A DNA stretch of 64,000 bases from an uncultured Pseudomonadota bacterium (GTDB lineage: Bacteria; Pseudomonadota; Gammaproteobacteria; Burkholderiales; CAIKXV01). Every line of letters starts with the position of its first letter. The first letter of the stretch is position 1. Below, in pieces: positions 19,929 to 56,257 of the stretch. The notes under the pieces are model-generated. The model did no database searches, had not been told where the DNA came from, and was given only the letters and a program-made list of their open reading frames with translations. The position numbers were made by a program, and so were the translations under genes. Location of the stretch: contig CAIKXV010000192.1 in NCBI GenBank assembly GCA_903831455.1, forward strand, positions 8,281-72,280. Reading direction: 5' to 3'.

Positions 19929-20080
19929 TGTCGCCTCCTCCGGGCAGACCCGGCGACGCTTCGCAGTCGCCGAAATCGTCAACCCGACTTATCATGTTCT
20001 GCCGATCGCGCAGGCGACCGGTCCTGGCCATCCGGGATCCCATCCGCCCATTCCGCGATCCCGAACACGGAGGACAGTAC

Positions 20081-28407: not shown

Positions 28408-28591
28408 TGCGCGCCCACGGGAAAGGGTCGAAGTCTGCGCATGTCTCGGCGGCTGGCCGGATCGGCACGTGCCGTCCGTTCCGTCCACGATAGCGCCCGG
28501 GGCGGGTTGGGTCAATCGGGGCCGACCGGCGCTGCCCGGCCGCGCCGGTGGCCATGCGAATGGCGCACCACCGCATGCCGGTGTGCCGGGT

Positions 28592-29581: not shown

Positions 29582-29723
29582 GGTGGCTCCCTGGTCCGGC
29601 CCGTCGCACGACGCGCCCGGGCTCGCGCAGGTCCGCGAAAGACGATCTGCCCGCCTGCAGGCACGCCCGGATCCTATCGTGTCGCGACCTCGCCCGCAGC
29701 CATGGCACCCCACCTGGGCGCGA

Positions 29724-32700: not shown

Positions 32701-32891
32701 CCCTGCGGGTACGCGCCCAGCACGCGCAGGCGGCCCGCGGTCGCCGCTTCGGCTGCAGCCAGTCGCGCCTCGGCGGACGAGTTCGGCGGCTCGATCGGCC
32801 CCTGCGCGCAGGCAGAGGCAGCCGCGACGGCAAGCCCAAGCGCGACCGTACATCGGCCAGCCACCGTCCGGATCCGCAACATCGACATCAT
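29724..32891 (-). CDS. Large exported Kelch-repeat (beta-propeller) protein with two C-proximal transmembrane helices and a Cys-containing C-terminal domain
   Basis: ORF 29724..33212; ATG 32891 after GGGGAG. Signal MMSMLRIRTVAGRCTVALGLAVAAASACAQ. Repeated Kelch signature (RHSATALPDGSVLLVGG, GHTATALQDGSVLVVGG, AHSATRLSDGRVLVVGG, AAVLLGNGAVLLAGG, TRMGDGRVLMAGG). Hydrophobic helices LWVAAAVLLPLLAYLLL and LIIYIPLSFLLLSGLGQLLLV. Confidence 0.75.
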   Translation of the reverse strand: MMSMLRIRTVAGRCTVALGLAVAAASACAQGPIEPPNSSAEARLAAAEAATAGRLRVLGAYPQGRKAWTSTVLPDGGVLLFGDRVLDDALRRNGEPVITLRNRFDHGSEVHVAPHAEPLLWRGDGKGWQRLPRPPGCKGNSFMPTATRMGDGRVLMAGGLCDRARMADDTSPRTPHVATSIWNAATQAWESGPDLTQTRVRHSATALPDGSVLLVGGHSDPALSPVAGNPAPVTEGPGTRASVGDLGHVLPVLASVERFEAGRMQAMPSLSIARAGHTATALQDGSVLVVGGRGATGEALDSAELWDARAGRWLLLPPMAAARHAHSATRLSDGRVLVVGGENGGGPSPDRLLPSSEIFDPSTRRWSPGPRLPRALREHAAVLLGNGAVLLAGGRQFSPSAYSEPWAWVLDAGQQRWLPAGNATVSRSDDEWQVTPDLEPLADGRVRIFAGTRVLLWSPRPPVPEIAPPAWSRTPAAVALASGEVLVVGHSSPASGAEQTHAYLWDPRARRWSAAIRPGFSAGPVHGLAQLRSGLIVHVGADGDSRRGYRLQAHCLMPPQAEWRACGEAELPASAAAAMTVGTLPDGRLAVVANQGTGAIYDEDRQAFTVGALLWQTEDLGYRAPIKPTKPLAQLNVPGGGTAVDVSPLAAQFWDGDAGVLFAFRVTKDGSTVEDRSAQRPAGPRMLWDPAKNLWTYILPRERMGGQAALLPDGCAISIDPPSVFDPTTAKVRWLPDPGIGLERGSGRVLVLPDGAIVAVGMPAGGVGQGLYQARAGCAGFAADADEALLVQARLVDDPRFRVETTPAAPAVEATDSPSGLRDTLSRWWPSQPLWVAAAVLLPLLAYLLLSRLVVPRVKNAAGRRLSPATTGVLATRLPWPVAWGVRLIIYIPLSFLLLSGLGQLLLVRDFNEGRMDHERCEVDPRACVDARTGLIASVPELERQGSPKAVPQIPCRFVGVWSTRDSLRSYNVTLLDDGRLRIDDLQPGARRQTDGFWMVQGGHLVRRYPYPGQTFPDVRRIVPVGDEAFELLTREGEVSRFTLVERRESARCAR

Positions 32892-33301
32892 GGCTCCCCG
32901 CGCATCCATCAGCCGCGCGCCGGCAGTGTCAGGCACCGCGCGATGAAACGCAACCGGCCGGATGGACGGTTCGGCGTACGGCGACACCCAAGGTGCGGAT
33001 CCGCCCGAGCCGATCGACGTCGCCCCTGCACGCCACTCGTTTCGACGCGGACGGGACCGTGATCGAGGGTATTTCGCTCGAGGGCGGCTTGGGTTACAAC
33101 GACGCGGACGGATCCTGCCGTCCCTGTTGCCCGGACGACACCCCCGGTTCCCGGCCGGCAGCCCCGCGTGCACGGCCGCGCCGCACGCGGGAGCGTGCGT
33201 CTCCTGCTGCACTGCGCGGTCGAGGCGGCCACGATCGCCTGTAACCGTTCGGCCTGCGGCAGCGAATAGTCGACATTGCCTCCCCCCTGATCCGGTCCAC
33301 G

Positions 33302-34324
33302 ATGCACCCCACGCTTCCCCTGCTCGCAGACACCGACTTCCCGCCGATCCGGCGCCGTTCCCTGGACACCCTCCAGGTCAACCTGGGTTACCGCTGCAAC
33401 CAGAGCTGCCTGCACTGCCACGTCGCCGCCAGCCCGCAGCGCACCGAGATGATGGGCGGCGACACCATCGCGCTGGTGCTCGACGTGCTGCGTGAACGCA
33501 AGGTCTCGACGCTGGACCTCACCGGCGGCGCGCCAGAGCTCAACGAGCACTTCCGCGAACTGGTGCGGCAGGCCCGGGCGCTGGGCGTTCGCGTCATCGA
33601 CCGTTGCAACCTCACCATCCTGTCCGAACCCGGCCAGGAGGATCTGGCGGCCTTCCTGGCCGAGCAGCGTGTCGAGGTGACCGCATCGCTGCCCTGCTAC
33701 TCGCCGGCCAACGTCGACCGCCAGCGCGGCGATGGCGTGTTCGATCGCAGCATCGCCGGCCTGCGGCAACTCAATGCGCTGGGCTTTGGCGACCCGGCGC
33801 ACGGCCTGGTGCTCAACCTCGTCTACAACCCGCAGGGCCCTTCGCTGCCGCCACCGCAGGGCCCACTCGAGGCCGATTACAAGCGCGAACTGCTGCAGCA
33901 TTTCGGGATCCGCTTCGACCACCTGTTCGCCCTGACCAACATGCCCATCCAGCGCTTCGGCAGCACGCTGGTCAGCAAGGGCACCTTTGCCGATTACATG
34001 CGCCTGCTGCGCGAAGCCTATCGACCCGCCAACCTCGAGACCGTGATGTGTCGCAGCCTGCTCAGCGTCGACTGGAACGGGTTCCTGTACGACTGCGACT
34101 TCAACCAGATGCTGGGCCTGCCCGCCTCCCTTCAAGGCCATGAGCACCCGCACCTGAGGGACCTCCTGCGCCATGACCCGGTCGATGCGGATATCCTCGT
34201 CGCGGATCACTGCTACGGATGCACCGCAGGCCAGGGCAGCAGTTGCGGAGGGGCCCTGGAGTCGGACACCGCTCCCTCGATGTCCGCGGCGTCGGCCCGC
34301 GATCCGGGCAGAGTGGCCCGATGA
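33302..34324 (+). CDS. arsS: Radical SAM/Cys-rich domain protein, ArsS family (arsenosugar-biosynthesis radical SAM type; Cys version, no in-frame TGA)
   Basis: 340 aa. Features: radical SAM CNQSCLHC, DLTGGAPELN, and C-terminal CDFNQ ... HCYGCTAGQGSSCGG Cys-rich tail. The stop overlaps the next start (ATGA at 34321). Confidence 0.75.
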   Translation: MHPTLPLLADTDFPPIRRRSLDTLQVNLGYRCNQSCLHCHVAASPQRTEMMGGDTIALVLDVLRERKVSTLDLTGGAPELNEHFRELVRQARALGVRVIDRCNLTILSEPGQEDLAAFLAEQRVEVTASLPCYSPANVDRQRGDGVFDRSIAGLRQLNALGFGDPAHGLVLNLVYNPQGPSLPPPQGPLEADYKRELLQHFGIRFDHLFALTNMPIQRFGSTLVSKGTFADYMRLLREAYRPANLETVMCRSLLSVDWNGFLYDCDFNQMLGLPASLQGHEHPHLRDLLRHDPVDADILVADHCYGCTAGQGSSCGGALESDTAPSMSAASARDPGRVAR

Positions 34325-36486
34325 CCCGTCCCCCGAGGAGCGTGCTCTGGATCGCCACCCTTGCGGTTGCCGCCGCGGCGTTCTGGGCCTGGCAGCAGTT
34401 CGAGCTGGGCTCCCTGCTGACGCTCGACGGACTGAAGGCCAGCCGCGACACGCTGCAGGCGCAGGTCCAGGCGCAGCCGCTGACGGCCGCCGCGATCTTC
34501 TTCGCCGGGTACGTCGTGGCCACGGCGCTTTCGATCCCGGGCGCGCTGGTCCTGACCCTGGCCGCCGGTGCCCTCTTCGGCCTGGCCTGGGGTCTGGTCC
34601 TCGTGAGTTTCGCCTCCAGCCTGGGCGCCCTGCTCGCCTTCCTCGTGGCGCGCCACCTCCTGCGCGACTGGGTCCAGGCACGCTTCGGCAAGGTGCTGGA
34701 CCCCATCAACGAGGGCATCCGGAAGGACGGGACGTTCTACCTGCTGACCCTGCGACTGGTACCGGTGTTCCCGTTCTGGCTGATCAACCTCCTCATGGGG
34801 CTGACGCCGATCAGCGCCGGACGCTTCTATGTCGTCAGCCAGGTCGGCATGCTGGCTGGCACCGCGGTGTACGTGAACGCGGGCACGCAACTCGCCGCCA
34901 TCCAGTCGCCCGGCGACATCCTGTCGCCCGGGTTGCTCGGCAGCTTCGTGCTGCTGGGCCTGTTCCCGCTGCTGGCGAGGGCGTGCGTCGGGTGGCTGCA
35001 GCGACGCAAGGTCTATGCGAGATGGACGAAGCCGAAGCGCTTCGACCGCAACCTGGTGGTCATCGGTGCCGGTGCAGGCGGGCTGGTGTCGGCCTACATC
35101 GCGGCGGCGGTGAGGGCCAAGGTCACGCTGATCGAAGGCCACAGGATGGGGGGCGACTGCCTGAATTACGGCTGCGTGCCCAGCAAGGCGCTGATCCGCT
35201 CGGCCACGATGGCCCGGCAGCTGAAGAAGGCGCACGAGCTGGGCGTTGCCGAGGCGGCGGGACGCGTCGACTTCGCGGCGGTGATGCAGCGCGTGCATCG
35301 CGTCATCCGCGACATCGCGCCCCACGACTCGGTCGAACGCTACACCGGGCTGGGCGTCGAGGTGCTGCAGGGGCATGCCCGCATCACAAGCCCGTGGACC
35401 GTCGAGGTGAAGCTCGCCGATGGCCGTACGCAGACGCTGAGCACGAAGGCCATCGTGATCGCGGCAGGTGCCCGCCCGTTCGCCCCGCCGCTCCCGGGGC
35501 TGGCCGAGGCCGGCTACCTCACGAGCGACACCCTCTGGGGACTGACCGAACTGCCGAAGCGCCTCGTCGTGCTGGGCGGCGGTCCGATCGGCAGCGAACT
35601 CGCCCAGAGCTTCGCACGCCTGGGCAGCGCGGTCACGCAGGTGGAAATGGCCTCGCGCATCCTGCTGCGCGAGGATCCCGAGGTGTCTGATCTCGTGGCC
35701 GCTTCGCTACGTGCCGATGGCGTGAAGCTGCTCACCGGGCACCAGGCGATACGGGTGGAGGTGGTCGATGGCGAGAAGCGCCTGGTCGCGAGGCACGGCG
35801 ATGCGGACGTCTCCATCCCCTTCGACGAGCTGCTGTGCGCCGTGGGCCGCAGCCCGCGCGTTGCAGGCTACGGCCTCGAGGAGCTGGGCATCCCGCTGAC
35901 CCCGCGCGGGACGATCGAGACGAACGCGTACCTCCAGACCCTCTACCCCAACATCTACGCGGTCGGCGATGTAGCCGGCCCCTTCCAGTTCACGCACGCC
36001 GCGGCCCACCAGGCCTGGTACGCAGCGGTGAACGCGCTGTTCGGGCGCTTTCGCCGCTTCAAGGCCGATTACCGGGTGGTCCCGTGGGCGACCTTCACCG
36101 ATCCCGAGGTGGCGCGGGTGGGCCTGAGCGAGAGCGAAGCCGCGCAACAGGGAATCGCCTGCGAGGTGACGAAATACGGGCTCGACGACCTCGACCGGGC
36201 CATCGCCGACGGCAGCGCGCACGGCTTCGTCAAGGTGCTCACCGCGCCGGGGACGGACCGCATCCTGGGCGTGACCATCGTCGGTGAACATGCCGGCGAC
36301 CTGCTCGCCGAGTACGTACTGGCCATGAAGCACGGCCTCGGGCTGAACAGGATCCTTGGCACGATCCATACCTATCCGACGTTGGCCGAGGCAAACAAGT
36401 ACGCCGCGGGCGAGTGGAAGCGCGCGAACGCGCCGCAGGGACTGCTGCGCTGGGTAGGCCGCTACCACGCGTGGGAGCGGACATGA
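34321..36486 (+). CDS. Fusion protein: DedA/TVP38/TMEM64 (SNARE-associated) membrane domain + class-I FAD-dependent pyridine nucleotide-disulfide oxidoreductase (mercuric reductase/lipoamide dehydrogenase-like)
   Basis: Frame of ORF 34219..36486, ATG 34321. N-terminal half has about 5 hydrophobic helices (e.g. YLLTLRLVPVFPFWLINLLMG). Then VVIGAGAGGLVSAY, redox-active GGDCLNYGCVPSKAL, a second dinucleotide fold VVLGGGPIGSELAQ, AVGDVAG, and C-terminal HTYPTLAE. Confidence 0.85.
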   Translation: MTRPPRSVLWIATLAVAAAAFWAWQQFELGSLLTLDGLKASRDTLQAQVQAQPLTAAAIFFAGYVVATALSIPGALVLTLAAGALFGLAWGLVLVSFASSLGALLAFLVARHLLRDWVQARFGKVLDPINEGIRKDGTFYLLTLRLVPVFPFWLINLLMGLTPISAGRFYVVSQVGMLAGTAVYVNAGTQLAAIQSPGDILSPGLLGSFVLLGLFPLLARACVGWLQRRKVYARWTKPKRFDRNLVVIGAGAGGLVSAYIAAAVRAKVTLIEGHRMGGDCLNYGCVPSKALIRSATMARQLKKAHELGVAEAAGRVDFAAVMQRVHRVIRDIAPHDSVERYTGLGVEVLQGHARITSPWTVEVKLADGRTQTLSTKAIVIAAGARPFAPPLPGLAEAGYLTSDTLWGLTELPKRLVVLGGGPIGSELAQSFARLGSAVTQVEMASRILLREDPEVSDLVAASLRADGVKLLTGHQAIRVEVVDGEKRLVARHGDADVSIPFDELLCAVGRSPRVAGYGLEELGIPLTPRGTIETNAYLQTLYPNIYAVGDVAGPFQFTHAAAHQAWYAAVNALFGRFRRFKADYRVVPWATFTDPEVARVGLSESEAAQQGIACEVTKYGLDDLDRAIADGSAHGFVKVLTAPGTDRILGVTIVGEHAGDLLAEYVLAMKHGLGLNRILGTIHTYPTLAEANKYAAGEWKRANAPQGLLRWVGRYHAWERT

Positions 36487-37346
36487 GCGCCGGATCCCGA
36501 CGCGCCTGGCTGGCAGCCGTACTGAACACGACGACCTCGCTGGTCCTGCTGCGGGCCGACGCCCTGCGCGCCCAGGCGACGCCCGGCTTCGACCACTCGC
36601 ACGCCGCGTGGACGAACCTGCTGCGAAAGCACGTCCGGCTGGTCCGGGGCGGGCAGGCATCGCAGGTATCCTATGCAGGCTTTGCGACGGACCGCGCAGC
36701 CCTCAGGGCCTACCTCGACAGCCTGTCGGCCGTGACGCCCGCCACGTTCGCAGGCTGGACCACGCCCGAGCGCCAGGCCTTCCTGATCAACGCCTACAAT
36801 GCCTTCACCGTCGAACGGGTGCTCACGCGGTATCCCGACCTGAAGTCCATCAGGGACCTGGGCACCCTGCTCGCGAGTCCGTGGCGACCGAGATGGATCC
36901 CGCTGCTGGGCAGCAAGGTCTCGCTCGACGACATCGAACACGCGATGCTGCGCAAGCGCGGTGACTACGACGACCCGCGAATCCACTTCGCCGTCAACTG
37001 CGCGAGCATCGGCTGCCCTGCCTTGCGCGAGGACGCGTTCGTCGCGGCCCGCCTCGATGCCCAGCTGGACGAGCAGACGCTGAGGTTCATGGGCGACCGT
37101 ACGCGAAACCGCTGGAATGCCGCGCGGGGGAGGCTGGAACTGTCGAAGATCTTCGACTGGTACGGCGAGGATTTCCGCCTCGGGCACCGGGGCATCGCGT
37201 CGCTGGCTGCATTTGCAGCGCGCCATGCAGACGCCCTGGCGGACACGCCCTCCGACCGTGAACGCATCCGCAGCGGTCGGGTCGACATCGCCTTCATCGA
37301 GTACGACTGGGCCCTGAACGACGTGCGCGCCGGCGACGCGCGATGA
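36483..37346 (+). CDS. DUF547 domain-containing protein (secreted/periplasmic?)
   Basis: Frame of ORF 36414..37346. ATG 36483 overlaps the upstream stop (ATGA). Features: FLINAYNAFTV, VSLDDIEH..LR, DPRIHFAVNCASIGCPAL, ELSKIFDWYGEDF. These match my recollection of DUF547. Confidence 0.7.
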   Translation: MSAGSRRAWLAAVLNTTTSLVLLRADALRAQATPGFDHSHAAWTNLLRKHVRLVRGGQASQVSYAGFATDRAALRAYLDSLSAVTPATFAGWTTPERQAFLINAYNAFTVERVLTRYPDLKSIRDLGTLLASPWRPRWIPLLGSKVSLDDIEHAMLRKRGDYDDPRIHFAVNCASIGCPALREDAFVAARLDAQLDEQTLRFMGDRTRNRWNAARGRLELSKIFDWYGEDFRLGHRGIASLAAFAARHADALADTPSDRERIRSGRVDIAFIEYDWALNDVRAGDAR

Positions 37347-37695
37347 CGCCGGTGCGGTCCATCCTGATGCCCGCAGTGGTCGAGGCGATCGGCTTCGAGG
37401 CCGCACGGCGAATGCCGCGCGGGCTTCGCGCGCGCAGCGTCCGGGTCTCGCGGGCCGATGGCGGCGCAGGCGGCGGCACGGTCCGGGGCGCAGCACCGCC
37501 GGCGGATGCGCGGGTCGCCTTGCGCACTCATGTATACCGGATGCGCGCGGTCGTCACCGCGAACCCCGCGGGTACGATGCATCGCCAGCCGGTCGACGGC
37601 CGCCCCTCTCTGCTCGCCGATCGCACGCATCGCGCGTATCGGTGCCGGATGAAAACGGCCTGCCCCTTCATGACCCGGCCGCTGGGGCGCCGCAG

Positions 37696-38880
37696 GTGAA
37701 GCGCCTGCTTCTCGCCGGCGCGGGCCATGCGCACGCATTCGTCCTCGAGTCGCTGATCAGGCAACCGATGCCCGGGGTTGACGTCGTGCTGGTCTCGCCC
37801 GAGCCGCTGGCGCCGTACTCGGGGATGGTGCCCGGCTGGCTGTCGGGCCACTATCGATTCGACGAGATCGTCATCGATTTCCGGTCCCTCGTCGCGGCCG
37901 CCGGCGCACGCTGGGTGCAGGGAGAACTCCACGGTCTGGATCCCGCGCAGCGCCTCGTCCGGCTGGTCGGTGGCTCGTCGATGGGCTACGACGTGCTGTC
38001 CCTGAATGTCGGCTCGACGCTGTACCCGCCGTGGCATGGACACGCCCAGTTGCTGCCGCTGAGACCGCTGTCGTTGCTCCGGGAACGTTACGAACGCGTG
38101 CTCGAGCGCTGGAGCCGGGACCCTTCTTGCAGCCCGTTCGTCGTCACGGCCGTGGGCGGCGGCGCGGCGGGAGTCGAGGCGCTCCTGGCCGTCCTCGCCC
38201 GTCTCCGGGCCTTGCGCCCGGACCGCATCGTGCGCGGCCACCTGCGCACGCGCGGACCCACGCTGCTGGCCGACCTTGCGCCGCCGGCCCGACGGGCAGC
38301 CTGTCGCGCGCTGGATCGCGCCGGCGTGGCCGTCGAAACCGACAGCGCGTGGTCCGCGCAGATCGACCGCCACAGCGATCTCGTCATCTGGGCTACCGGC
38401 GCACAGGCGCAGCCCTGGCAGCGCGCTCCCGCGCGGCGCGGTGCGCTGGCGGTCGACGCACAGGGCTTCATCCGCATCGATCCCCAGCTTCGATCCATCT
38501 CCCATCCCGACATCCTGGCCGCCGGCGACTGCGCGAGCTGGACGGAGCGCACCTTGCCCAAGGCAGGCGTGCATGCCGTGCGAATGGGACCCGTGCTCGC
38601 CACCAACCTGCGCGCCGCCCTGCTCGGCCCCGAGGTTGGCGGAGCCTTCATCGAGCACCGGCCACAGCGGCACGCCCTGTCGCTGCTGTCCATCGGCGCG
38701 GGCCGCGCCATCGCCTCGCGCGGGACACTCGGCGCCGAAGGCGCGTGGGCGTGGCGATGGAAGGACCGTATCGACCGCCGATTCGTGAGCCGGTTTCGCA
38801 CGACCCGGCCCGATTGCGCGACGGCAGCCCCCACCCCGCTCGCCGACGGATCCAGTACGACCCCGGGTACCCCTCGATGA
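37696..38880 (+). CDS. FAD/NAD(P)-dependent pyridine nucleotide-disulfide oxidoreductase-family protein (NDH-2-like; resembles the class found fused or adjacent to SelD)
   Basis: ORF 37642..38880. I favour GTG 37696 (VKRLLLAGAGHAHAF...); ATG 37642 is the alternative. Features: VSPEPLAPYSGMVPGWLSGHY, VTAVGGGAAGVE, ILAAGDCA. Confidence 0.7.
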   Translation: MKRLLLAGAGHAHAFVLESLIRQPMPGVDVVLVSPEPLAPYSGMVPGWLSGHYRFDEIVIDFRSLVAAAGARWVQGELHGLDPAQRLVRLVGGSSMGYDVLSLNVGSTLYPPWHGHAQLLPLRPLSLLRERYERVLERWSRDPSCSPFVVTAVGGGAAGVEALLAVLARLRALRPDRIVRGHLRTRGPTLLADLAPPARRAACRALDRAGVAVETDSAWSAQIDRHSDLVIWATGAQAQPWQRAPARRGALAVDAQGFIRIDPQLRSISHPDILAAGDCASWTERTLPKAGVHAVRMGPVLATNLRAALLGPEVGGAFIEHRPQRHALSLLSIGAGRAIASRGTLGAEGAWAWRWKDRIDRRFVSRFRTTRPDCATAAPTPLADGSSTTPGTPR

Positions 38881-39779
38881 AGCCGACTCGTCGTCACGCC
38901 TGCAGCGTGCTGCTGGGCAGTGTCCTCGCCCTGCCCTCGCTCACGACCGCGCAGCGTTCCCCGGCGGCCGGGCCGCTCAGGTTCGGGGTCGGGATGTTCC
39001 AGCCCGACCGCGAGCGAAACGACGCCTCCTACAGGCCCCTCGCCGCCTATCTTGCGCAGCAACTCGGCCGACCGGTCCAGTTGCGCACCGTCGACACCTG
39101 GGAGGGGCTGGCTCGCAGCCTGTCGACCGGGGAGACCGATCTGGCGCTGATGGGGCCATGGGGCTACGTGCTGGCCAATCACTTCAGCGACGCCCAGGTG
39201 GTCGCGACCATCCTCTACCAGGGCAAGCCCGAGTACTTCGCCCTGATCGTCACGCACCCGGGCTCCGGGCTGAACAGCCTCGACGACCTGCTGGGCACGA
39301 AAGGCATCGGGCGCACTTTCGCCTTCGGCGACAAGGGCTCGACCTCCGGGTATCTGATCCCGTTCCACGAGTTCCAGAAACGCGGCATCGATCCCGAGAA
39401 GCACTTCGCGCGGGTACTCCACACGAAGCACCAGGCGATCCAGATCCAGGTCACCGCGGGCAAGCTCGACGCCGGGGCGGACTTCAATCGAAATCGCGAC
39501 GTGATGATCGCCCAGGGCCTGATCAGCGCGGCGAACAGCAGGATCATCTGGCAGTCGCAGCCCCTGCCCAACGACGCCTTCGCGGTGAGTTCGGTGCTCG
39601 CGAAGGACACGGCGTTCGTCACGCGCCTGCAGGCTGCCCTGACCGGTATCGGCCCGCGGCTTGCCACCCAGCCGAACCTGCTGCCGCCCGACTACACGGG
39701 CTTCATCGCCAGCGCACACAGCGCCTACAAACCGATCCGCGATGCCGGGTTGGCCACCGGAAAGCTGGTCGCGCGATGA
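38877..39779 (+). CDS. phnD: PhnD-family ABC transporter periplasmic substrate-binding protein (phosphonate/phosphite/oxyanion type)
   Basis: ATG 38877 overlaps the upstream stop (ATGA). Signal MKPTRRHACSVLLGSVLALPSLTTA. Features: DLALMGPWGYV and FGDKGSTSGYLIP. Confidence 0.75.
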   Translation: MKPTRRHACSVLLGSVLALPSLTTAQRSPAAGPLRFGVGMFQPDRERNDASYRPLAAYLAQQLGRPVQLRTVDTWEGLARSLSTGETDLALMGPWGYVLANHFSDAQVVATILYQGKPEYFALIVTHPGSGLNSLDDLLGTKGIGRTFAFGDKGSTSGYLIPFHEFQKRGIDPEKHFARVLHTKHQAIQIQVTAGKLDAGADFNRNRDVMIAQGLISAANSRIIWQSQPLPNDAFAVSSVLAKDTAFVTRLQAALTGIGPRLATQPNLLPPDYTGFIASAHSAYKPIRDAGLATGKLVAR

Positions 39780-40681
39780 CCCGTTCGGGTCCGATCCCTC
39801 CGGACGGACCGCGCCCCGGGCGTCGGTTCGCCGGACGCACGGGCTTCGCCGCGCTGGCGGTGCTGTACGGGGCACTGGTCGGGGTGTGCCTGGCGACGCT
39901 CGTGGGTGCGGGCGACCTGAGCCTGGGCCGCAACCCGATCGAGAACCTGGCCAGGACCGTCGGCGAGTTCCTGCGCCCCAGCTTTCTGGACGTCTGGCTC
40001 GGTCCGGAGCGGCTGGAATACCGCAGCGACGACGGCAGCGTGCTCAGGGTGGAGAACCGCCGCGAGGTCGAGGCCGGTTTCCTGGCCGCCACGGCGCGCG
40101 CCACCTGGGTCACCTTCCAGATCGCGACGCTGGGCTCCCTGCTGGCCGCGCTGATGGGCCTGCCCCTGGCCCTGCTGGTCGCACGAAACCTGCGCGCCCC
40201 GCGCCTCCTGGCATGGATGGCGAAGGGCATCCTCGACGTGTCGCGCTCCGTCCACACGCTGGTCTTCGGTCTGATCCTGGTCGGCATCGTCGGATTGGGG
40301 CCCACCGCCGGCGTCCTGGCCATTGCGCTGCACTCGATGGGAACCTGCGGCAAGCTGTTTGCCGAGAGCATCGAGTCGATGGACATGGCAGCGATCGACG
40401 CCGTCCGAGCGACCGGGGCGTCCGAGGCCCAGGTCTTCTTCCATGGCGTGTGGCCATCCGTCCTGCCGCAGATCGTGAGCCACCACCTCTACGTCTGGGA
40501 ATTCAACATCCGCGACTCGACCATCCTCGGCCTGATCGGTGCCGGCGGCCTCGGCCTGCTGATCAGCGAGGCGGTGAGTCTGTTCCAGTGGGACCGGTTG
40601 AGCACGCTGCTGATCGTGGTGGTGGCGCTGGTGATGGCCTTCGACGCGCTGTCGCGTCGGATCCGGGAGGCGCTGCTGTGA
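39776..40681 (+). CDS. phnE: PhnE-like ABC transporter permease
   Basis: ATG 39776 overlaps the upstream stop (ATGA). Multiple TM helices. EAA-loop-like IDAVRATGASEAQVFFHGVWPSVLPQIVS, then IRDSTILGLIGAGGLG. Confidence 0.8.
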   Translation: MTRSGPIPPDGPRPGRRFAGRTGFAALAVLYGALVGVCLATLVGAGDLSLGRNPIENLARTVGEFLRPSFLDVWLGPERLEYRSDDGSVLRVENRREVEAGFLAATARATWVTFQIATLGSLLAALMGLPLALLVARNLRAPRLLAWMAKGILDVSRSVHTLVFGLILVGIVGLGPTAGVLAIALHSMGTCGKLFAESIESMDMAAIDAVRATGASEAQVFFHGVWPSVLPQIVSHHLYVWEFNIRDSTILGLIGAGGLGLLISEAVSLFQWDRLSTLLIVVVALVMAFDALSRRIREALL

Positions 40682-40691
40682 AGGCTGTCCG

Positions 40692-41540
40692 ATGAGCACT
40701 GCCATCCGCATGGAGGGGATGCGGGTAGCCCTCGCCGGGCGTGTGGTCCTCGACGTGCCACGCCTGGTCATCGAGACCGGCGAGCGTGTCGCCATCGTCG
40801 GTCCCAATGGTGCGGGCAAGAGCATGTTGCTGAAGGTGATCGGCGCCGGGGTCCCGGCCCGACACGGGCAGGTCCACGTGCTGGGGTACTCGCTGGGCCC
40901 TGACCCCTCGGAGGGGGAAGGCACCCACCGTGCGCTCGCACCCGACGCGCGACGCGCGCTGCGCCGCGATACCGGGCTGTTGATGCAGGGCCTGCACCTC
41001 GTGCAGCGCCTGAGCGCCCGGGAGAACGTGCTGATTGGCGCGCTGGCCCGGCTCCACGGCGTGCACGCGCTGCGGAGCTGGGCCCGCTGGTACCCGACGG
41101 ACCTGGTCGCCGAGGCCGATGCCATGCTCACGGCCCTGGGGCTGGCCGATCGAGTCGGAACGCGAGCCGATCGGCTGTCGGGCGGCGAACGGCAGAAGGT
41201 GGCGCTCGCCCGGATGCTGCTGCAGAGACCCCGGCTGATCCTCGCCGACGAGCCGACCTCGGCGCTGGACCCGACCGCAACACGCGAGGTCTGTGCCGCA
41301 CTGGTCGGCGCGGCCGCCGATCGGGATCGGACGCTCGTGACCGTCGTGCATGACCTGGACTTGCTGCCCGCCCTGTCCACGCGCGTGATCGGAATACGCG
41401 CGGGGTGCATCGCCTGGGACCTGCCCACGGGCCGGGTAACGCCGCAGCGACTGCAGGCCCTGTATGGGCAGCCCCCCGTGCAGGCCGATGGTCCCGAGGT
41501 CGACCCGCCGGCCGCGCCGAATGCCGGTTGGCAGGCCTGA
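40692..41540 (+). CDS. phnC: PhnC-like ABC transporter ATP-binding protein
   Basis: Walker A GPNGAGKS, signature LSGGERQKVALAR, Walker B LILADEPTSALD, and PhnC-like ENVLIGALARL. Confidence 0.85.
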   Translation: MSTAIRMEGMRVALAGRVVLDVPRLVIETGERVAIVGPNGAGKSMLLKVIGAGVPARHGQVHVLGYSLGPDPSEGEGTHRALAPDARRALRRDTGLLMQGLHLVQRLSARENVLIGALARLHGVHALRSWARWYPTDLVAEADAMLTALGLADRVGTRADRLSGGERQKVALARMLLQRPRLILADEPTSALDPTATREVCAALVGAAADRDRTLVTVVHDLDLLPALSTRVIGIRAGCIAWDLPTGRVTPQRLQALYGQPPVQADGPEVDPPAAPNAGWQA

Positions 41541-41559
41541 GCCTCTACCTGTGTCCGCA

Positions 41560-42615
41560 ATGGATTCGACGAAGATGACCGACACCCTCGAGCAGGCACC
41601 CACGCCGCACCCAGGGCGCAGTTGCCCCCTGCACTACCGCTATGCGCCGGAGGTGTTCCGCGAACAGGCCCCGCCGCGGCTGCAATCGCTGGAGGTGCTG
41701 TATGTCGTCGGCGGGTTGTACGGGAACGAGCCTGCGCTGCAGGCGGTGCTGGATCTCTTCGCCCGGGAGAGCGGTCGAAAGCGCCTGGTGTTCAACGGCG
41801 ACTTCCACTGGTTCGATACCGATCCCGCCCGATTCTCGCGGGTGCAGGCGGCAGTGCTCGAGCACGAGGCGCTCCGCGGCAACGTCGAGACGGAACTCGC
41901 CGAAGAACCCGGCAGCGATGATGCGGGGTGTGGCTGTGCGTATCCGGAGTGGGTCGGCGATGAAGTGGTGGAGCGCTCGAACCGGATCCTCGCGCGGTTG
42001 CGTCGCACGGTGGCACCACGGCAGCAGGCGGAGTTGTCGGCGCTGCCGATGTGGGGGCGCGCCGATGTCGGTGAGCTTCGCCTGGGGATCGTGCATGGCG
42101 ATGCCACTTCGCTCTCGGGATGGGGCTTCTCCCAGGAGCATTTGCGTGACCCGGGGCATCGCGAGACCGTGCGCGGCTGGCTCGAGCGAGCGGCGGTCGA
42201 TGCATTCGCGTGTACGCACACCTGCCTGCCCGTCTTCCAGGAGGTGCGGGTACCCGCCGCCGAGCCGCCGCGCTGGATCCTGAACAACGGTGCAGCCGGC
42301 ATGCCCAATTTCTCGGGGGATACGGCCGGCCTGCTGACCCGGGTGGCCGTGACGCCCTATCGCGGGCCTGGGCGCCGATTCGGATTCGTCGCGCCACGCG
42401 GAAACATCCACGTCGACGCGATCGGCATCGAGTTTTCGACCGATGCATGGCTGGCGCAGTTCTGCAGGGACTGGCCGCCGGGCAGTGACGCCCATGATTC
42501 CTATTTCAATCGACTGGCCAGGGGACCCGACTATCACCCTGCGGAGGCCCTCCGCGTCGACGCGGGTGTGCGCTCGCCGCTTTCCCGGGGACGGGCCGGA
42601 ATTCAGCGGACCTGA
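41560..42615 (+). CDS. Divergent calcineurin-like metallophosphoesterase-fold protein (function unknown)
   Basis: Frame of ORF 41464..42615, ATG 41560. Ordered motif remnants: VVGGLYGN (in place of DxH), NGDFHWFD (GDxxDR-like), LRGNVE (GNHE-like), IVHGD, CTHTC (GHxH-like). Also a GCGCAYPEW Cys pair. Confidence 0.5.
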   Translation: MDSTKMTDTLEQAPTPHPGRSCPLHYRYAPEVFREQAPPRLQSLEVLYVVGGLYGNEPALQAVLDLFARESGRKRLVFNGDFHWFDTDPARFSRVQAAVLEHEALRGNVETELAEEPGSDDAGCGCAYPEWVGDEVVERSNRILARLRRTVAPRQQAELSALPMWGRADVGELRLGIVHGDATSLSGWGFSQEHLRDPGHRETVRGWLERAAVDAFACTHTCLPVFQEVRVPAAEPPRWILNNGAAGMPNFSGDTAGLLTRVAVTPYRGPGRRFGFVAPRGNIHVDAIGIEFSTDAWLAQFCRDWPPGSDAHDSYFNRLARGPDYHPAEALRVDAGVRSPLSRGRAGIQRT

Positions 42616-42629
42616 GGGAGCACAGGCGG

Positions 42630-43376
42630 ATGCCCTCGCGCACGGCAGGGGTTGCATCGCGGTCGGTGGGCGGCGGCGCGCTGCTGCTGGTGATGCTCTC
42701 GGCCGCAGTCCACGCGGCTTCGCTCGCTCCGCTGGCCGGTCCCGAGGGTGCAACGCCGCAGGCGCCCTGGGTGTTCTCAGGGCTTCCCGGCCAGTCGCTT
42801 CCCGCAACCCGCTTCATGTTCGACCGGCTGGAAGACCGCACGGTCCTTCGCATCCAGACCGCCGGGTCCTATGGAAACCTTGTCCATCCGCTGGCGGCCT
42901 CGTCCGCCGGGCGCCTGTCCTGGCGCTGGCGGGTCGACCTGCCGCTGAAGTCCGCCGACCTGCGCAGCCGCCCGGGCGACGACGTCGCGCTGAAGGTCTG
43001 CGCGCTGTTCGACATGCCACGGGACTCGGTGCCCTTCCTCGATCGTCAACTGCTGCGGCTCGCCGAGACCCGCACAGGGCAGCCGCTTCCCACGGCGACC
43101 GTGTGCTACGCGTGGGACCCCTCGTCACCTGCCGGCACCGTGGTGCCGAATGCCTACAGCCGGCGCGTGCGCTATATCACCCTCGGCATGCCGCCGCGTA
43201 CCTGGCAGGCGGTGAGCCGGAACCTGGCCGACGACTTCATCCGCGCCTTCGGCGACGAGGCGACCACCGTCCCCCCGTTACGCGCCATCGCCGTCGGGGC
43301 CGATGCCGACAATACGGGCGGCAGCAGCATCGGCTTCATTGCCGACCTCGAATGGACGCCAACCGGGACACGCTGA
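42630..43376 (+). CDS. DUF3047 domain-containing exported protein
   Basis: 248 aa with GAGGGAG RBS. Signal ...GGGALLLVMLSAAVHAAS. Features: LSWRWRV, GDDVALKVCALFD, and AIAVGADADNTGG, as I recall for DUF3047. Confidence 0.6.
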   Translation: MPSRTAGVASRSVGGGALLLVMLSAAVHAASLAPLAGPEGATPQAPWVFSGLPGQSLPATRFMFDRLEDRTVLRIQTAGSYGNLVHPLAASSAGRLSWRWRVDLPLKSADLRSRPGDDVALKVCALFDMPRDSVPFLDRQLLRLAETRTGQPLPTATVCYAWDPSSPAGTVVPNAYSRRVRYITLGMPPRTWQAVSRNLADDFIRAFGDEATTVPPLRAIAVGADADNTGGSSIGFIADLEWTPTGTR

Positions 43377-43525: not shown

Positions 43526-45670
43526 TCAGCGCGCGGCTACCCCCGGCCCCGGCCCACGCGCGAACCAGCTGAGCGCATCGCCACGGATCTCGCCCATGTG
43601 CACGACGCCGATCGAGCAGTCGATACCGGGCTTCGCGTCCTCGCCGTCACACTCGCCGAATGTTCCCGAAATCCACACCTCGTAGTGGCCATCCCGGTCG
43701 AGGTCCGTCACCGCGGAGATCGTTCCGCTGTTGTACTGGAACTGGAAGCGTGAGGGGATACCGACTGGGCGCACACCTTCGGGCCCGACAAGCAGCAGCA
43801 CCCGGTCGCCCAACCACGGCCACCACGGCCGCGCGACGTCGTCGCTGAACCGGGACAGCCTGAGTTCCACGAGGCCACGGCCGCCACGCGGAGAACGCCA
43901 GCCCGAGACCCCCCCTTCGATCTGCAACCGTTGCGCCGCCAGCGTGTCCAGCACGGCTTGCAGGGCGTCGCCCTGCCCGGGGCGCAGCGCGTCCACGATC
44001 AACCGCAGCGCCCGCACCGGGTCCTCCGGTTCGGCGCGCGCTGACCGAGAGGCTGGCCGCCTCGCCGGCGTAAAGCGCTCCGTCCGCGTGAGCCTGCGAC
44101 CCCACGCCCTCCCCACCGCCTGCGGCGCGCCCACCGCCGCCCTGCAGACCGCCTCGGTCGAAGGGTCCCGAGGCGTGACGGCCTTTCCGAAGCAGGCATT
44201 ACCGTCTTCCGTGAGGCCGGCCACCAGCTCGTCATACGTCGTGCCCTGCAGCGAGCCGAGGATACGCGCGAGATCCGCACGAAGCGCCAGCACGTCCGGA
44301 TCGGACGGGTGCTTTTGCATCCACACCCACTCCGGTTGCGCGCATCGGCTTTCGCGACCCGATTTCAGCCTTTCAAGCATGTGCCGGGTCTGCAGCGACG
44401 GGGGCAGGTTCGCAAACCAGCCGCGGAGCACTGCGCACGGACGGTTCGCATCGTCGTCGAGTCGCGCGACCTCGACGCGTACCGCGGCGCGCAGCCGCGG
44501 CTGGTCGGGTAGTGCATCGAAGCCGCGCCACGGACTGACCGGCTTGTTGTAGGAATCGATCTCGAGGTTCCAGCGCCTGACGTAGGGGTCGAGGAAGTCC
44601 TCGCGCAACCGGCTCATCCGCACGAGGGTTCGCGCCAGCGCATCGGCGGGCCAGGCCTTCGGGGCGTGGGCCACCGACTGCAGCTGCGCCCGCAACCACT
44701 GCGCGCGACGCAGTCCGGCCTGGTAGCGCTCGCGGGCATCCTCGACCTTCGAGGAGACGAAATCGACGTACTCGCGCTGCGCCGGGGGCAGCGGCGCGTC
44801 GGGCGCCACCTCCGGATCGAGCCGCTGCAGCGCCTCGGCCAGCGCCGGGTCCGCCGGCGAGAGGCTCGCCCACGCGGCCGCGATCGTCACGCAATCGTCG
44901 GCACCCCGCGCGGTGCAGCGATCTGCCGCGAGCCACCGTGCGAATTCGGCCTCCAGGGCCGGCGTCGCGCGGGCGGCGACGGCCTCGCGCAGGCGCTGGT
45001 TCGCCTCCAGTTCGTGCTCGTTGAACGCCGGGCGATCAGCCAGCCGCCTGCGTACGCAGTGACCGAACTCCGACTCCTCAGGCGCGGAGCTGTTTGCCCC
45101 CAGGGGCCAACGGGTCAACTGCAGGTCCTGTCCATCGGGCGGCAGGCCATCTGCCCAGATCCATACGCGCTTGGGCAGGCATGACCAGAGCGCGAAGAAG
45201 ACGATCGCCCGCGTGCTCCAGGTCTCGTCGGGCCGCAGAAGCGCGCCCGTCAGCCTGCGCTCGCGCTGAACGAATTCCGTGTTCCACGGAAACCAGCGCC
45301 ACATCTGCCGGGCAACGTCTGAAGGACGCTCGGCGACCAGCACCGTGTCGAGCCGGGCGGCGAGCTGCACCCCTGCCCATCGCTCCCGGAACAACCGCTG
45401 GGCGAAGTCCGGCGCCGCGAGTAGGCGCTGCAGGCTCTCCGGGGATGCGGCCTCCGGCCGGAACGCAGCACGATCGGCTGCACGCAGTTCGCCGTAGGCC
45501 CGGAGTTCCCTCACGACCGCCGCGAGCGCGGGGTCAGGTGCAAGGGGCGCGGCCTCGGGGGACCGAGAGGGCTCGCCGGCAGCCCACGCGCAAGGGGCCA
45601 GCAGGATCAGGCACATCGATACCCAGCGCAGGGCGATGAACCGGAAACGACCGCCTGGCAGAGCGTTCAT
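43526..45670 (-). CDS. Large exported Cys-rich hypothetical protein with a C-terminal FG-GAP/Ca-binding-like DxDxDG motif
   Basis: ORF 43526..45712. ATG 45670 gives MNALPGGRFRFIALRWVSMCLILLAPCAWAAG as signal. About 12 Cys spread through the mature part. C-terminal VTDLDRDGHYEVWISGTFGECDG. I recognise no other family. Confidence 0.6.
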   Translation of the reverse strand: MNALPGGRFRFIALRWVSMCLILLAPCAWAAGEPSRSPEAAPLAPDPALAAVVRELRAYGELRAADRAAFRPEAASPESLQRLLAAPDFAQRLFRERWAGVQLAARLDTVLVAERPSDVARQMWRWFPWNTEFVQRERRLTGALLRPDETWSTRAIVFFALWSCLPKRVWIWADGLPPDGQDLQLTRWPLGANSSAPEESEFGHCVRRRLADRPAFNEHELEANQRLREAVAARATPALEAEFARWLAADRCTARGADDCVTIAAAWASLSPADPALAEALQRLDPEVAPDAPLPPAQREYVDFVSSKVEDARERYQAGLRRAQWLRAQLQSVAHAPKAWPADALARTLVRMSRLREDFLDPYVRRWNLEIDSYNKPVSPWRGFDALPDQPRLRAAVRVEVARLDDDANRPCAVLRGWFANLPPSLQTRHMLERLKSGRESRCAQPEWVWMQKHPSDPDVLALRADLARILGSLQGTTYDELVAGLTEDGNACFGKAVTPRDPSTEAVCRAAVGAPQAVGRAWGRRLTRTERFTPARRPASRSARAEPEDPVRALRLIVDALRPGQGDALQAVLDTLAAQRLQIEGGVSGWRSPRGGRGLVELRLSRFSDDVARPWWPWLGDRVLLLVGPEGVRPVGIPSRFQFQYNSGTISAVTDLDRDGHYEVWISGTFGECDGEDAKPGIDCSIGVVHMGEIRGDALSWFARGPGPGVAAR

Positions 45671-46133
45671 CGCCGGGCGGTAGTGGACCGGGGAACGCGC
45701 ATGGGTGTGCATCGCTTCGTCGATTCGCGGGGTGCCGCGCTCACCAGCACGGTGACTATCGCCACGGTAGAAACAGTCAACATTCGCCAGGGTTTTATCT
45801 CAGGAACTCTACAAGTAGCGGAACGGTTATGGCCATTAATCCGAGAACGCAGACAAGTGCGAAGTAGAGGCGATAGCGCGTAAGGCCCGTGCGAACGCCC
45901 TCAGCGGTGAGATGCTCCGCGACTCCGTGACAGTATCTGCACGAACAGAACGGTCGAGCTCTGACAGTACGTGCTGGTCGAGTTGAGGAAGCATGTATTG
46001 TGAGACCTGAGGACGCGCTGAGGTAATTGGTTTTCGGATGAGCCATCCACTCTGCGGTGGAGCCTACCGTCACGACACGCGTAACCCATTGTCGCATCGG
46101 AACTTTCAGGCCGCGTGTTTGCCGTCAACGTAC

Positions 46134-47647: not shown

Positions 47648-47663
47648 GGAAACATGATGTTCC

Positions 47664-47683
47664 GTAATGTCGGTAATTGTCAA
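47664..47683 (-). promoter_or_regulatory. Candidate abiE promoter/operator: TTGACA box and direct repeats GACA(A)TTAC (minus-strand reading)
   Basis: On the plus strand, gtaatgtc lies at 47664-47671 and gtaattgtc at 47673-47681. tgtcaa at 47678-47683 reads TTGACA on the minus strand. The site is an AT-rich patch immediately upstream of the antitoxin start. AbiEi antitoxins are known autorepressors. Confidence 0.3.
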
Positions 47684-47744
47684 TACTAACCTGCGAATCG
47701 GAACATCAAGACGACCGGTGCTCGCACCGGCGCGACCAGCCGTC

Positions 47745-56163: not shown

Positions 56164-56257
56164 GCGATCCCGCCGCGCCCGGGAGCGAGCGCGGGCACGG
56201 CTTCTGCATGGATGGCACCGACGCCCGCGAGGCGGGTCAACCGAGGAGACATCACCG

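Follow-up and report, generated by a model that had tools for sequence, protein, structure and literature searches.

We analysed a stretch of 64,000 nucleotides (hereafter, the window) from an uncultured Burkholderiales bacterium (assembly GCA_903831455.1, contig CAIKXV010000192.1, positions 8,281 to 72,280), in which a first-pass annotation, made from the sequence alone, had pointed out a gene cluster between positions 33302 and 43376 that joins an ArsS-type radical SAM enzyme to a PhnDEC-like importer. Every credible gene in this interval lies on the forward (+) strand, in an uninterrupted run of nine intact genes (g1 to g9) and one 118-codon open reading frame (ORF), and both flanks (29724-33212 and 43526-45712) are on the reverse (-) strand. 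Protein families were assigned by Pfam and NCBIfam profile scans with curated cut-offs. The features are listed below (aa, amino acids; nt, nucleotides; ECF, extracytoplasmic function; HMM, hidden Markov model; scores in bits, followed by the cut-off of the model).

33073..33097, - strand: second sigma-F-like promoter motif, GTAACC-N15-CGAA, facing a divergent Kelch-repeat gene
33241..33266, + strand: ECF sigma-F-type promoter motif, GTAACC-N16-CGAA, ending 36 nt upstream of the ArsS ATG
33302..34324, + strand: g1, ArsS-type radical SAM enzyme, 340 aa (TIGR04167, PF04055 and PF12345)
34321..36486, + strand: g2, VTT/DedA membrane domain fused to a class I FAD disulfide reductase, 721 aa (VTT_dom, Pyr_redox_2 and Pyr_redox_dim)
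36483..37346, + strand: g3, DUF547 protein, 287 aa (PF04784)
37343..37699, + strand: 118-codon ORF, 5' relic of a TIGR04283-type glycosyltransferase gene (GT2 HMM match and synteny)
37696..38880, + strand: g4, NDH-2/SQR-like flavoprotein of the 'N-terminal to SelD' type, 394 aa (near-threshold TIGR03169)
38877..39779, + strand: g5, periplasmic binding protein of the HtxB-like subfamily, 300 aa (Phosphonate-bd; match to HtxB, 5ME4)
39776..40681, + strand: g6, PhnE-type ABC permease, 301 aa (BPD_transp_1; TIGR01097, 234.7 vs 216.7)
40692..41540, + strand: g7, PhnC-like ABC ATPase, 282 aa (ABC_tran; TIGR02315, 159.7 vs 266.1, below the cut-off)
41560..42615, + strand: g8, divergent protein with a predicted metallophosphoesterase fold, 346-351 aa (AlphaFold and Foldseek)
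42630..43376, + strand: g9, DUF3047 protein, 248 aa (PF11249, 157.7)

The same-strand, tightly coupled layout described in the first-pass annotation was borne out: stop and start codons overlap as ATGA at 34321, 36483, 38877 and 39776, and further junctions measure 10 nt (40681/40692), about 19 nt (41540/41560) and 14 nt (42615/42630). Its count of ten genes stands for the nine intact ones, the tenth being the relic ORF. This ORF also fills the gap of 295-349 nt that had been placed at 37.35-37.7 kb, and it overlaps both of its neighbours, through an ATGA at the stop codon of the DUF547 gene (37343) and a GTGA at the GTG start codon of the flavoprotein gene (37696). Scans for sigma-70 promoters and terminators gave no match within the cluster, and an Rfam scan detected no RNA family anywhere in the window, whose G+C content is about 70%. 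A metagenome contig from an independent sample (L089) shares this layout, at 98.6% identity over 9,029 nt; there, the 118-codon ORF was called as a gene.

Protein families of the cluster

The proposal that this is an ArsS-centred gene set related to metalloids or oxyanions was supported. The first gene scores 455 bits against the TIGR04167 equivalog model (cut-off 300). The protein consists of a Radical_SAM domain (PF04055), with the CX3CX2C motif at C32/C36/C39, and a Cys-rich C-terminal DUF3641 domain (PF12345) that ends HCYGCTAGQGSSCGG. C304 and C307 are invariant, and the GSSC sequence aligns with the GxxU motif reported for those TIGR04167 members that are selenoproteins. Homologues number in the thousands, and in Burkholderiales many are more than 80% identical; outside cyanobacteria, we counted 713 cluster representatives at E<1e-30, with thousands of close copies in Burkholderiales of freshwater and sludge. 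A sequence search of the PDB with ArsS returned nothing usable. The characterised enzyme adenosylates trivalent dimethylated arsenic, DMAs(III), to DDMAA (5'-deoxy-5'-dimethylarsinoyl-adenosine), after which adenine is removed. To our knowledge, the biochemistry of ArsS has been studied for the cyanobacterial enzyme only.

Profile searches also placed the VTT-FAD fusion, the DUF547 protein, the importer and the DUF3047 protein where the first-pass annotation had put them. Its remaining assignments fared less well, in that the flavoprotein fell just under its TIGR03169 cut-off, the proposed TIGR04553 membership of the binding protein failed, and g8 matched no profile at all.

Among the solute-binding proteins of known structure, g5 is closest to HtxB (5ME4, E 2e-45), followed at a distance by PtxB (7e-20), PhnD (3e-15), AioX (7e-13) and ArrX (4e-12). 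Residues W75, Y120, T156, S157, R205 and D233 align with HtxB W52, Y97, T129, S130, R178 and D206. In the HtxB pocket, Y97, T129 and S130 hold two oxygens of the ligand, W52 forms a Trp cap, and a salt bridge between R178 and D206 bars a third anionic oxygen. Three wall positions differ (S155, H185 and F203, corresponding to N128S, F158H and M176F), and this is the pattern of the HtxB-like subfamily defined in PMC6629693, for which a larger pocket was modelled (88 vs 68 cubic angstroms) and phosphite binding was predicted. The pocket residues are invariant in eight ArsS-linked copies. g5 belongs to the HtxB-like (hypophosphite/phosphite-type) subfamily. The protein passes the broad TIGR01098 model and falls short of the PhnD model TIGR03431 (142 vs 261.1). 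The importer as a whole does not qualify as a PhnCDE importer, with the PhnE equivalog passing, the PhnD and PhnC models failing and no C-P lyase in the window. The putative selenate-binding class TIGR04553, to which the first-pass annotation had likened the binding protein, was ruled out at 93.8 bits against a cut-off of 250.

Two of the proteins are predicted flavoenzymes. In g2, the reductase carries the redox motif CLNYGC and lacks a C-terminal Cys pair (its C-terminus reads ...RYHAWERT). In the PDB, MerA (E 3e-75) and Lpd come closest in sequence, and the protein lies under the cut-offs of the MerA, Lpd and GR models (392.8 vs 454.45 for the MerA model, TIGR02053). It is therefore not a MerA by score, by the missing Cys pair or by its N-terminus, which is a VTT/DedA domain and not NmerA. 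The flavoprotein g4 matches TIGR03169 over its full length at 306.9 bits, a marginal miss of the cut-off of 310, and SelD is neither fused to it nor adjacent, with none encoded in the window. Its PDB matches are weak (NDH-2 and FSP1).

Both DUF proteins carry predicted export signals, a twin-arginine-like signal peptide (SRRAWL) in the DUF547 protein g3 and a Sec-type signal peptide in the DUF3047 protein g9. In g3, the cysteine pair of an NCASxGCP motif (C173/C178) is invariant in 14 ArsS-linked homologues. A PDB search with a DUF547 profile gave nothing usable (best match DinB, E 0.068), a single-sequence AlphaFold model of this protein was useless (predicted local distance difference test, pLDDT, 46), and a DUF3047 profile found no solved relative in the PDB. 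Among the related loci described below, one DUF547 homologue contains an in-frame stop (L070, 13163-13948) and one VTT-FAD gene is in two aligned pieces (L078, 11069-13220); these may be pseudogenes or errors in the assembly of metagenome-assembled genomes.

The most divergent member is g8, for which we found no match in Pfam, in NCBIfam or, with either a single sequence or a profile, in the PDB. Its homologues, more than 7,000 in number, are without exception unnamed or labelled 'hypothetical'. An AlphaFold model built with 44 homologues (pLDDT 83, predicted template modelling score 0.85) resembled, in a Foldseek search, the metallophosphoesterases PH1004, Pfu-1218608 and SapH (2gju, 1nnw and 3qfm; E ~1e-8, TM score normalised to the target 0.66-0.69). 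The five calcineurin-like motifs that build both metal sites (DxH, GDxxDR, GNHE, H and GHxH) are incomplete: motif I reads GGLYGN, with its Asp and His lost, motif III reads GNVE and motif V reads HTC. The ligands of one metal site (D81, N108, H179 and H220) and four cysteines (C22, C124, C126 and C222) are nevertheless invariant in 22 homologues, down to 41% identity. The first-pass annotation had called this protein a degenerate metallophosphoesterase. The fold is supported by the model; since one metal site and four cysteines are invariant, g8 is a remodelled, Cys-rich member of the fold and not merely a degenerate one. Four homologues of 525 aa (P0317, P0334, P0338 and P0350) are natural fusions of a TIGR04282-type DUF2064 domain with g8, pointing to a likely physical or functional link between the two.

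Neighbourhoods of related ArsS genes

We compared the cluster with 165 related loci. A genome scan anchored on ArsS, with one genome per species, provided 80 loci at 61-79% identity, mostly from beta- and gammaproteobacteria, which were queried with the proteins of the window and with accessory proteins of Piscinibacter sakaiensis. A metagenome scan anchored on the binding protein provided 80 loci at 64-83% identity, of which 26 had enough flank to be counted. Each scan comprised its best 80 loci; more distant ArsS or HtxB-like contexts, such as that of Bradyrhizobium BTAi1, lie outside both.

Among the 49 loci with full flanks, the most frequent partners of ArsS were a GT2 glycosyltransferase (41 loci) and a DUF2064 protein (39), followed by the VTT-FAD fusion (30), a g4-type flavoprotein (16), g8 and DUF3047 (13 each), DUF547 (12), an MTAP-like PNP_UDP_1 protein and an ECF sigma factor (9 each), an ArsM-like methyltransferase (5), an SSF-type symporter (4) and a PhnDEC-type importer (3). 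These counts agree with the earlier remark that DUF547, DUF3047 and the VTT-reductase fusion recur around ArsS. In the same loci, the presence of g4, of DUF3047 and of g8 is mutually correlated. Close relatives have the order of the window with extra genes, namely ArsS - VTT-FAD - DUF547 - GT2 - DUF2064 - flavoprotein - PhnD - PhnE - PhnC - (DUF302) - g8 - (MTAP-like), as seen in Inhella (L010), in the Rubrivivax albus-like L086 and in L087. The two halves of the cluster, whose joint occurrence elsewhere had been suggested as a check, are found together in many genera. Chance does not account for the arrangement, since ArsS is accompanied by these genes in many genera, with their order kept or permuted.

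The binding-protein-anchored metagenome loci revealed a tighter association: g8 was present in 23 of the 26, adjoining the importer in each, ArsS in 21, the VTT-FAD fusion in 18, DUF2064 in 15 and GT2 in 12. Given these frequencies of g8 and ArsS, the importer clade is dedicated to the two, and the trio of ArsS, importer and g8 may be a functional unit. Other loci combine the modules differently. In Piscinibacter, the flavoprotein, g8 and DUF3047 accompany ArsS and the importer is absent. Six loci (L044, L045, L054, L057, L036 and L034) have, between ArsS and g8, a sodium:solute-symporter-like transporter where the PhnDEC-type importer would otherwise stand; it looks like an alternative uptake module. 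Two loci have a DUF302 gene between the ABC ATPase gene and g8 (L086, 12850-13416; L088, 12698-13186); the window has none. CMD/AhpD-like genes flank the cluster in L086 and L087, and in one case (P0166) ArsS is fused to a CMD/AhpD-like domain.

The frequent partners also bear on the first-pass statement that no pathway explains the gene combination, which was too strong. In NCBIfam, the GT2 and DUF2064 families are named 'TIGR04283/TIGR04282 family arsenosugar biosynthesis glycosyltransferase', so that curated annotation already covers the core of ArsS, TIGR04283 and TIGR04282, with or without ArsM. In 12 of 85 loci, ArsS has an ArsM-like neighbour, the best NCBIfam match of these genes being arsenite methyltransferase. 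Among ten long ArsS fusion proteins, six contain an ArsM-type methyltransferase domain, and the two domains occur in both orders (P0157, P0159, P0185, P0195, P0226 and P0265). In a neighbour-joining tree, ArsS proteins from ArsM-linked loci and from loci linked to the importer and g8 are interspersed, at 61-79% identity, and this interspersion argues for one ArsS chemistry probably common to both settings.

In the window itself, both transferases have been lost. The first-pass annotation had correctly listed selD, arsM, ars resistance genes, C-P lyase and glycosyl- and methyltransferases as missing, as we found no selD, selA, selB, arsM, ars resistance, C-P lyase or intact glycosyl- or methyltransferase gene in the 64 kb; it had overlooked the relic of a glycosyltransferase, as well as the sigma-F-type promoter described below. 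Across the whole window, an HMM of 52 ArsS-linked GT2 proteins scored highest on the segment containing the 118-codon ORF (E 0.019, HMM positions 2-54). About 43% of the first 60 residues match the GT2 protein of L086 (by eye), with a shared MTP start, an SI..P..EA strand-helix and a DGG..GT motif, and in relatives GT2 and DUF2064 sit exactly at this position, between DUF547 and the flavoprotein. By both similarity and synteny, the ORF is the 5' remnant of a deleted GT2 gene. We detected no relic of DUF2064 in the 37.35-37.7 kb interval by HMM search, and tblastx of this interval was too noisy in DNA of 70% G+C to be used on its own. Genes of the TIGR04283 and TIGR04282 families, whose counterparts in relatives pass the cut-offs (273 vs 182 bits and 200 vs 134 bits, respectively), are absent from the whole window apart from the GT2 relic. 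The window thus represents a reduced, lineage-specific variant in which GT2 and DUF2064 have both been lost. Forms without transferases recur in other lineages, down to ArsS-PhnDEC-g8 (in metagenome loci and also in L079).

Comparing the window with L089, the ratio of non-synonymous to synonymous changes (pN/pS; small counts throughout) was 0.13-0.21 for g2, g3, g5, g6 and g8, 0.47 for the flavoprotein, 0.59 for the ABC ATPase and 1.2 for the relic, in which three of four differences are non-synonymous. As five genes have such low ratios, set against the changes in the relic, the remaining genes look as if they are still under selection.

Promoter and genomic surroundings

The motif that ends 36 nt upstream of ArsS is the only exact GTAACC-N16-CGAA in the window on either strand, and a relaxed pattern matched twice against an expectation of 0.14. 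The same sequence is the experimentally defined consensus of sigma-F promoters in Caulobacter crescentus, whose sigma-F regulon comprises eight genes (DUF2282-DUF692-DUF2063-DoxX operons and yedY) and is induced by chromate, dichromate and cadmium via the anti-sigma factor NrsF (PMC3511200). The window and its nearest relatives share a conserved TGTAACC...CGAA/CGTA element upstream of ArsS. Of the related loci, 4 of the 84 from genomes (about 0.12 expected) and 9 of the 26 from metagenomes carry the motif upstream of ArsS; in other loci it stands before the first gene of the cluster, and it is often one of a divergent pair.

The regulators themselves lie close by in relatives. In 15 loci, sigF-nrsF homologues adjoin the cluster; L103 (2172-3400, - strand) and L106 (1313-2550, - strand), for example, encode a divergent ECF sigma factor and an NrsF-family protein (PF06532, 188-189 bits). 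This suggests a conserved divergon of sigF-nrsF and the ArsS operon, with the motif on both sides, in Rubrivivax-type Burkholderiales. Sets of DUF2282-DUF692 (MbnB-like)-DUF2063-DoxX genes were found beside ArsS clusters in about seven loci. From the promoter and this genomic linkage, we conclude that the cluster probably belongs to a sigma-F-type metal and oxyanion stress regulon. The window contains no sigF-nrsF pair; in relatives these genes occupy the position of the Kelch-repeat gene, and in this species the Kelch protein may be co-regulated with the cluster.

The DUF2282-DUF692-DUF2063-DoxX sets were seen in L014 (8410-9709, - strand), L015 (5699-10006), L008, L012, L034 and L066, where further ECF sigma factors and a zf-HC2 anti-sigma factor also occur. 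In Piscinibacter sakaiensis (L004), a gene for a chromate transporter of the ChrA family (8477-9823) lies immediately upstream of ArsS on the same strand. The divergent neighbour in the window is a 1162-codon Kelch-repeat / glyoxal-oxidase-like ORF (29724-33212, - strand) with a probable true start near 32937.

Downstream, a 728-codon ORF (43526-45712, - strand) converges on the cluster, with coding-like G+C content at third codon positions and no Pfam match, and about 3 kb from the end of the cluster there is an AbiEii toxin / AbiEi antitoxin pair (type IV; 46134-47815, - strand). The remainder of the window is ordinary Burkholderiales chromosome, with guaA, guaB, smpB, the AbiE pair and many TctC receptors. 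At least ten genes for such TctC ('Bug') periplasmic receptors, typical of Burkholderiales and unrelated to the cluster, lie in the 64 kb (for example 2-1411, 1883-3055, 4876-5898, 14714-15937, 16055-17050, 19874-21049, 27388-29791 and 56126-57289).

Function, alternatives and known systems

The common core of these neighbourhoods reads as a coherent arsenosugar-type pathway that would run from ArsM through ArsS to the MTAP-like, CofC-like and GT2 proteins, the roles of the last three being putative. For the cluster in the window, we propose a single operon, under sigma-F-type control in response to metal(loid) stress, through which a small oxyanion is taken up, reduced and passed to ArsS for adenosylation, a scheme whose chances of being right or wrong we judge about equal. 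The HtxB-like binding protein and the PhnE/PhnC-like transporter would carry a small oxyanion, containing two or three oxygens, out of the periplasm and into the cell. As cargo we favour a pentavalent arsenical, for instance dimethylarsinate, which is attractive since it is the oxidised form of the ArsS substrate and shares the two-oxygen, mono-anionic R2XO2- shape of hypophosphite. Next, g8 and two flavoproteins (the TIGR03169-like g4 and the membrane-tethered DedA-disulfide reductase g2) might reduce this cargo to a trivalent, thiol-bound state. ArsS would then cleave S-adenosylmethionine (SAM) and join its 5'-deoxyadenosyl group to the metalloid, giving a pentavalent and far less reactive adduct. 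The adduct would in most relatives be turned into a riboside ('arsenosugar') by three further enzymes, namely an MTAP-like phosphorylase, a CofC-like transferase (TIGR04282) and GT2 (TIGR04283); the pathway in this organism may stop earlier or use enzymes encoded elsewhere. The DUF547 protein, with its Cys pair, and the DUF3047 protein would act in the periplasm. The comparisons establish the gene content, family membership, conserved synteny and modules, the deletion, and the promoter motif with its link to sigF-nrsF, whereas what the cargo is, how the three redox proteins would take part in reduction and what is finally made are inferred. Two analogies, and no more than that, bear on the scheme: mercury is imported by the mer system to be reduced, and phosphatase folds have repeatedly been turned into arsenate reductases, as in ArsC (of the low-molecular-weight protein tyrosine phosphatase type) and Acr2 (of the Cdc25 type).

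Arsenic is better supported as the substrate than selenium or phosphorus, because of the equivalog-level match of ArsS, the links to ArsM and the curated naming of its partners. The first-pass annotation had left selenium and arsenic side by side; the leads to arsenic proved the stronger, including the ArsM-like neighbours and the fusions, and selenium retains the near-threshold TIGR03169 match with no SelD nearby.

Several points weigh against the proposed scheme. No arsM, ars resistance gene or arsenic regulator is present in the 64 kb of the window, and both transferases are deleted. The ArsS tree is star-like, limiting the resolution of the argument from interspersion. g8 and ArsM share no locus (g8 in 22 and ArsM in 12 of 85; Fisher p = 0.031, relatedness uncontrolled), and since p is 0.31 in the full-flank subset, their mutual exclusivity is a hint only. 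A reductase role for g8 is hypothetical, drawn from its invariant cysteines and the analogy with phosphatase-fold arsenate reductases, and the DUF2064-g8 fusions would equally fit a late, sugar-phosphate step for this protein. The solved relatives of the importer bind reduced phosphorus, and for its subfamily phosphite, not an arsenical, was predicted (PMC6629693). Likewise, the documented inducers of sigma-F in Caulobacter are chromate and cadmium, not arsenic (PMC3511200).

A more daring form of the scheme, which we regard as tentative and rather doubtful, takes ArsS, the HtxB-like importer and g8 as a self-sufficient three-part system that fixes an external oxyanion to 5'-deoxyadenosine under sigma-F control; the minimal ArsS-PhnDEC-g8 form does occur alone. 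One possible version is a Mer-like import of methylated arsenicals for detoxification or salvage, with g8 as a novel class of organoarsenical(V) reductase, taking the place of ArsM in providing ArsS with its substrate. Another possible version is radical-SAM adenosylation of phosphite or hypophosphite, a route to the C-P bond independent of phosphoenolpyruvate mutase. A rival reading has the cluster serve reduced phosphorus. The importer would take up phosphite or hypophosphite, either purely as a phosphorus source, being merely linked to the cluster, or as a feed for ArsS, which would add the 5'-deoxyadenosyl radical to a P(III)/P(I) species to form a C-P bond, with g8 processing the phosphonate-type nucleotide. 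We think this unlikely, even though HtxB is the closest solved relative of the binding protein, all pocket hallmarks are kept, the subfamily with the same three substitutions was predicted to bind phosphite (PMC6629693), g8 shows a phosphoesterase fold and relatives often encode an MTAP-like phosphorylase. Neither the cluster nor the window holds an htxA- or ptxD-type oxidising enzyme or a C-P lyase, the promoter is of a metal-stress ECF type in a context with no recognisable Pho-type features, and ArsS orthologues of this identity level are linked to ArsM elsewhere. The importer clade occurs with ArsS in 21 of 26 loci, making a plain nutritional role improbable, and we know of no radical SAM enzyme that adenosylates phosphorus, which also counts against this reading. 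Selenium fares no better and is, in our view, also an unlikely substrate. Here the importer would take up selenite (biselenite being similar to mono-anionic phosphite), the flavoproteins would reduce it to selenide, a role that has been proposed for SelD-linked TIGR03169 proteins, and the ArsS homologue or its partners would make an organoselenium product. DedA proteins have been linked to selenite uptake, g4 scores 306.9 bits on the 'N-terminal to SelD' model, and biselenite could use a pocket that binds mono-anionic phosphite in HtxB through Asp-Arg and that in the HtxB-like subfamily gains a His and 20 cubic angstroms. Yet that score is under the cut-off, the selenate model TIGR04553 clearly failed, and selD, selA and selB are absent from the window; selD is not among the recurrent neighbour clusters identified in related loci, where no selD-specific search was made. 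The selenoproteins with a GxxU motif among TIGR04167 members can be cited in favour, but a selenocysteine in an enzyme is uninformative about its substrate, and the methyltransferases linked to this ArsS family are ArsM-like.

The remaining alternatives deny the cluster a joint function. It is quite improbable that it is a decaying remnant, non-functional and drifting after the loss of the transferases. GT2 and DUF2064, the best-conserved companions of ArsS (41 and 39 of 49 loci, respectively), have indeed been deleted, leaving a relic, and pN/pS is raised in the flavoprotein and the ATPase; still, nine reading frames are intact with their start/stop overlaps kept, five genes have low pN/pS, the arrangement is the same in an independent sample (L089) and transferase-less forms recur in other lineages. 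Hardly credible, in turn, is the notion of two unrelated neighbouring operons, an ArsS unit (33.3-37.3 kb) and an ordinary phosphonate/phosphite importer unit (37.7-43.4 kb). It was invited by the apparent gap of 295-349 nt and by relatives in which the ArsS unit lacks the importer, but the gap is a relic ORF overlapping both neighbours, no sigma-70 promoter or terminator match lies inside the cluster, the importer accompanies ArsS in 21 of 26 loci, and genes of both halves co-occur in many genera, including in forms without the importer.

Proteobacterial ArsS, then, belongs to a neighbourhood built of modules, with accessory genes that are uncharacterised throughout and an importer that is HtxB-like or of the SSF type; in the Rubrivivax/Piscinibacter group, this neighbourhood is probably part of a sigma-F/NrsF metal-stress regulon. 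Literature searches (DUF547+DUF3047, TIGR04167/DUF3641, DUF2064/TIGR04282-3, TVP38-oxidoreductase fusion and arsS+arsM+arsenosugar) found no account of the proteobacterial cluster, and we found no description of the accessory module, its dedicated association with ArsS, the transferase-less forms or the linkage to sigma-F/NrsF. If the proposed import and reduction of arsenicals is true, it would provide a route by which bacteria lacking ArsM obtain and reduce methylated arsenic (we know of no bacterial DMAs(V) reductase), assign functions to several DUF families and extend the sigma-F regulon to metalloid transformation. Cultured carriers, namely Piscinibacter sakaiensis and Rubrivivax species, offer a testable entry to these very common non-cyanobacterial ArsS systems.

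Among the closest known systems is the cyanobacterial arsenosugar pathway with its NCBIfam set (TIGR04167/TIGR04283/TIGR04282/NF038099). The window matches it at the equivalog level in ArsS, and its relatives carry both transferases, an MTAP-like phosphorylase and sometimes an ArsM-like methyltransferase. In contrast to the cyanobacterial pathway, where ArsM precedes ArsS, the window has no ArsM and has both transferases deleted, and it adds an HtxB-like importer, g8, a TIGR03169-like flavoprotein, a DedA-disulfide reductase, DUF547 and DUF3047, accessory genes that lie outside the described pathway and on which we found no literature. The mer operon (MerP/MerT and MerA) similarly joins the periplasmic capture and import of a toxic species to a cytoplasmic class I FAD disulfide reductase; this is a resemblance of logic only, as g2 is not MerA and is fused to a DedA domain. 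As for g8, ArsC and Acr2 are likewise phosphate-handling folds fitted with essential cysteines, and C22/C124/C126/C222 suggest the same, whereas the predicted fold of g8 is that of calcineurin-like metallophosphoesterases, it has no sequence relationship to either enzyme and its function is purely hypothetical. The SelD-associated TIGR03169 flavoproteins match g4 over its full length, but g4 scores under their cut-off, has no SelD fused or adjacent and co-varies with DUF3047 and g8.

The importer keeps the Trp cap, the Tyr/Thr/Ser oxygen ligands and the Arg-Asp bridge of HtxB from the HtxBCDE system of Pseudomonas stutzeri; unlike that system, it has no HtxA dioxygenase or PtxD nearby, and its clade is embedded in ArsS clusters with a metal-stress promoter. 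Finally, the eight genes of the Caulobacter sigma-F/NrsF regulon include no ArsS cluster (PMC3511200), and the 64 kb of the window include no sigF-nrsF, whereas the promoter in the window is an exact match to the Caulobacter consensus, and in relatives both sigF-nrsF and the hallmark genes of that regulon stand beside ArsS.

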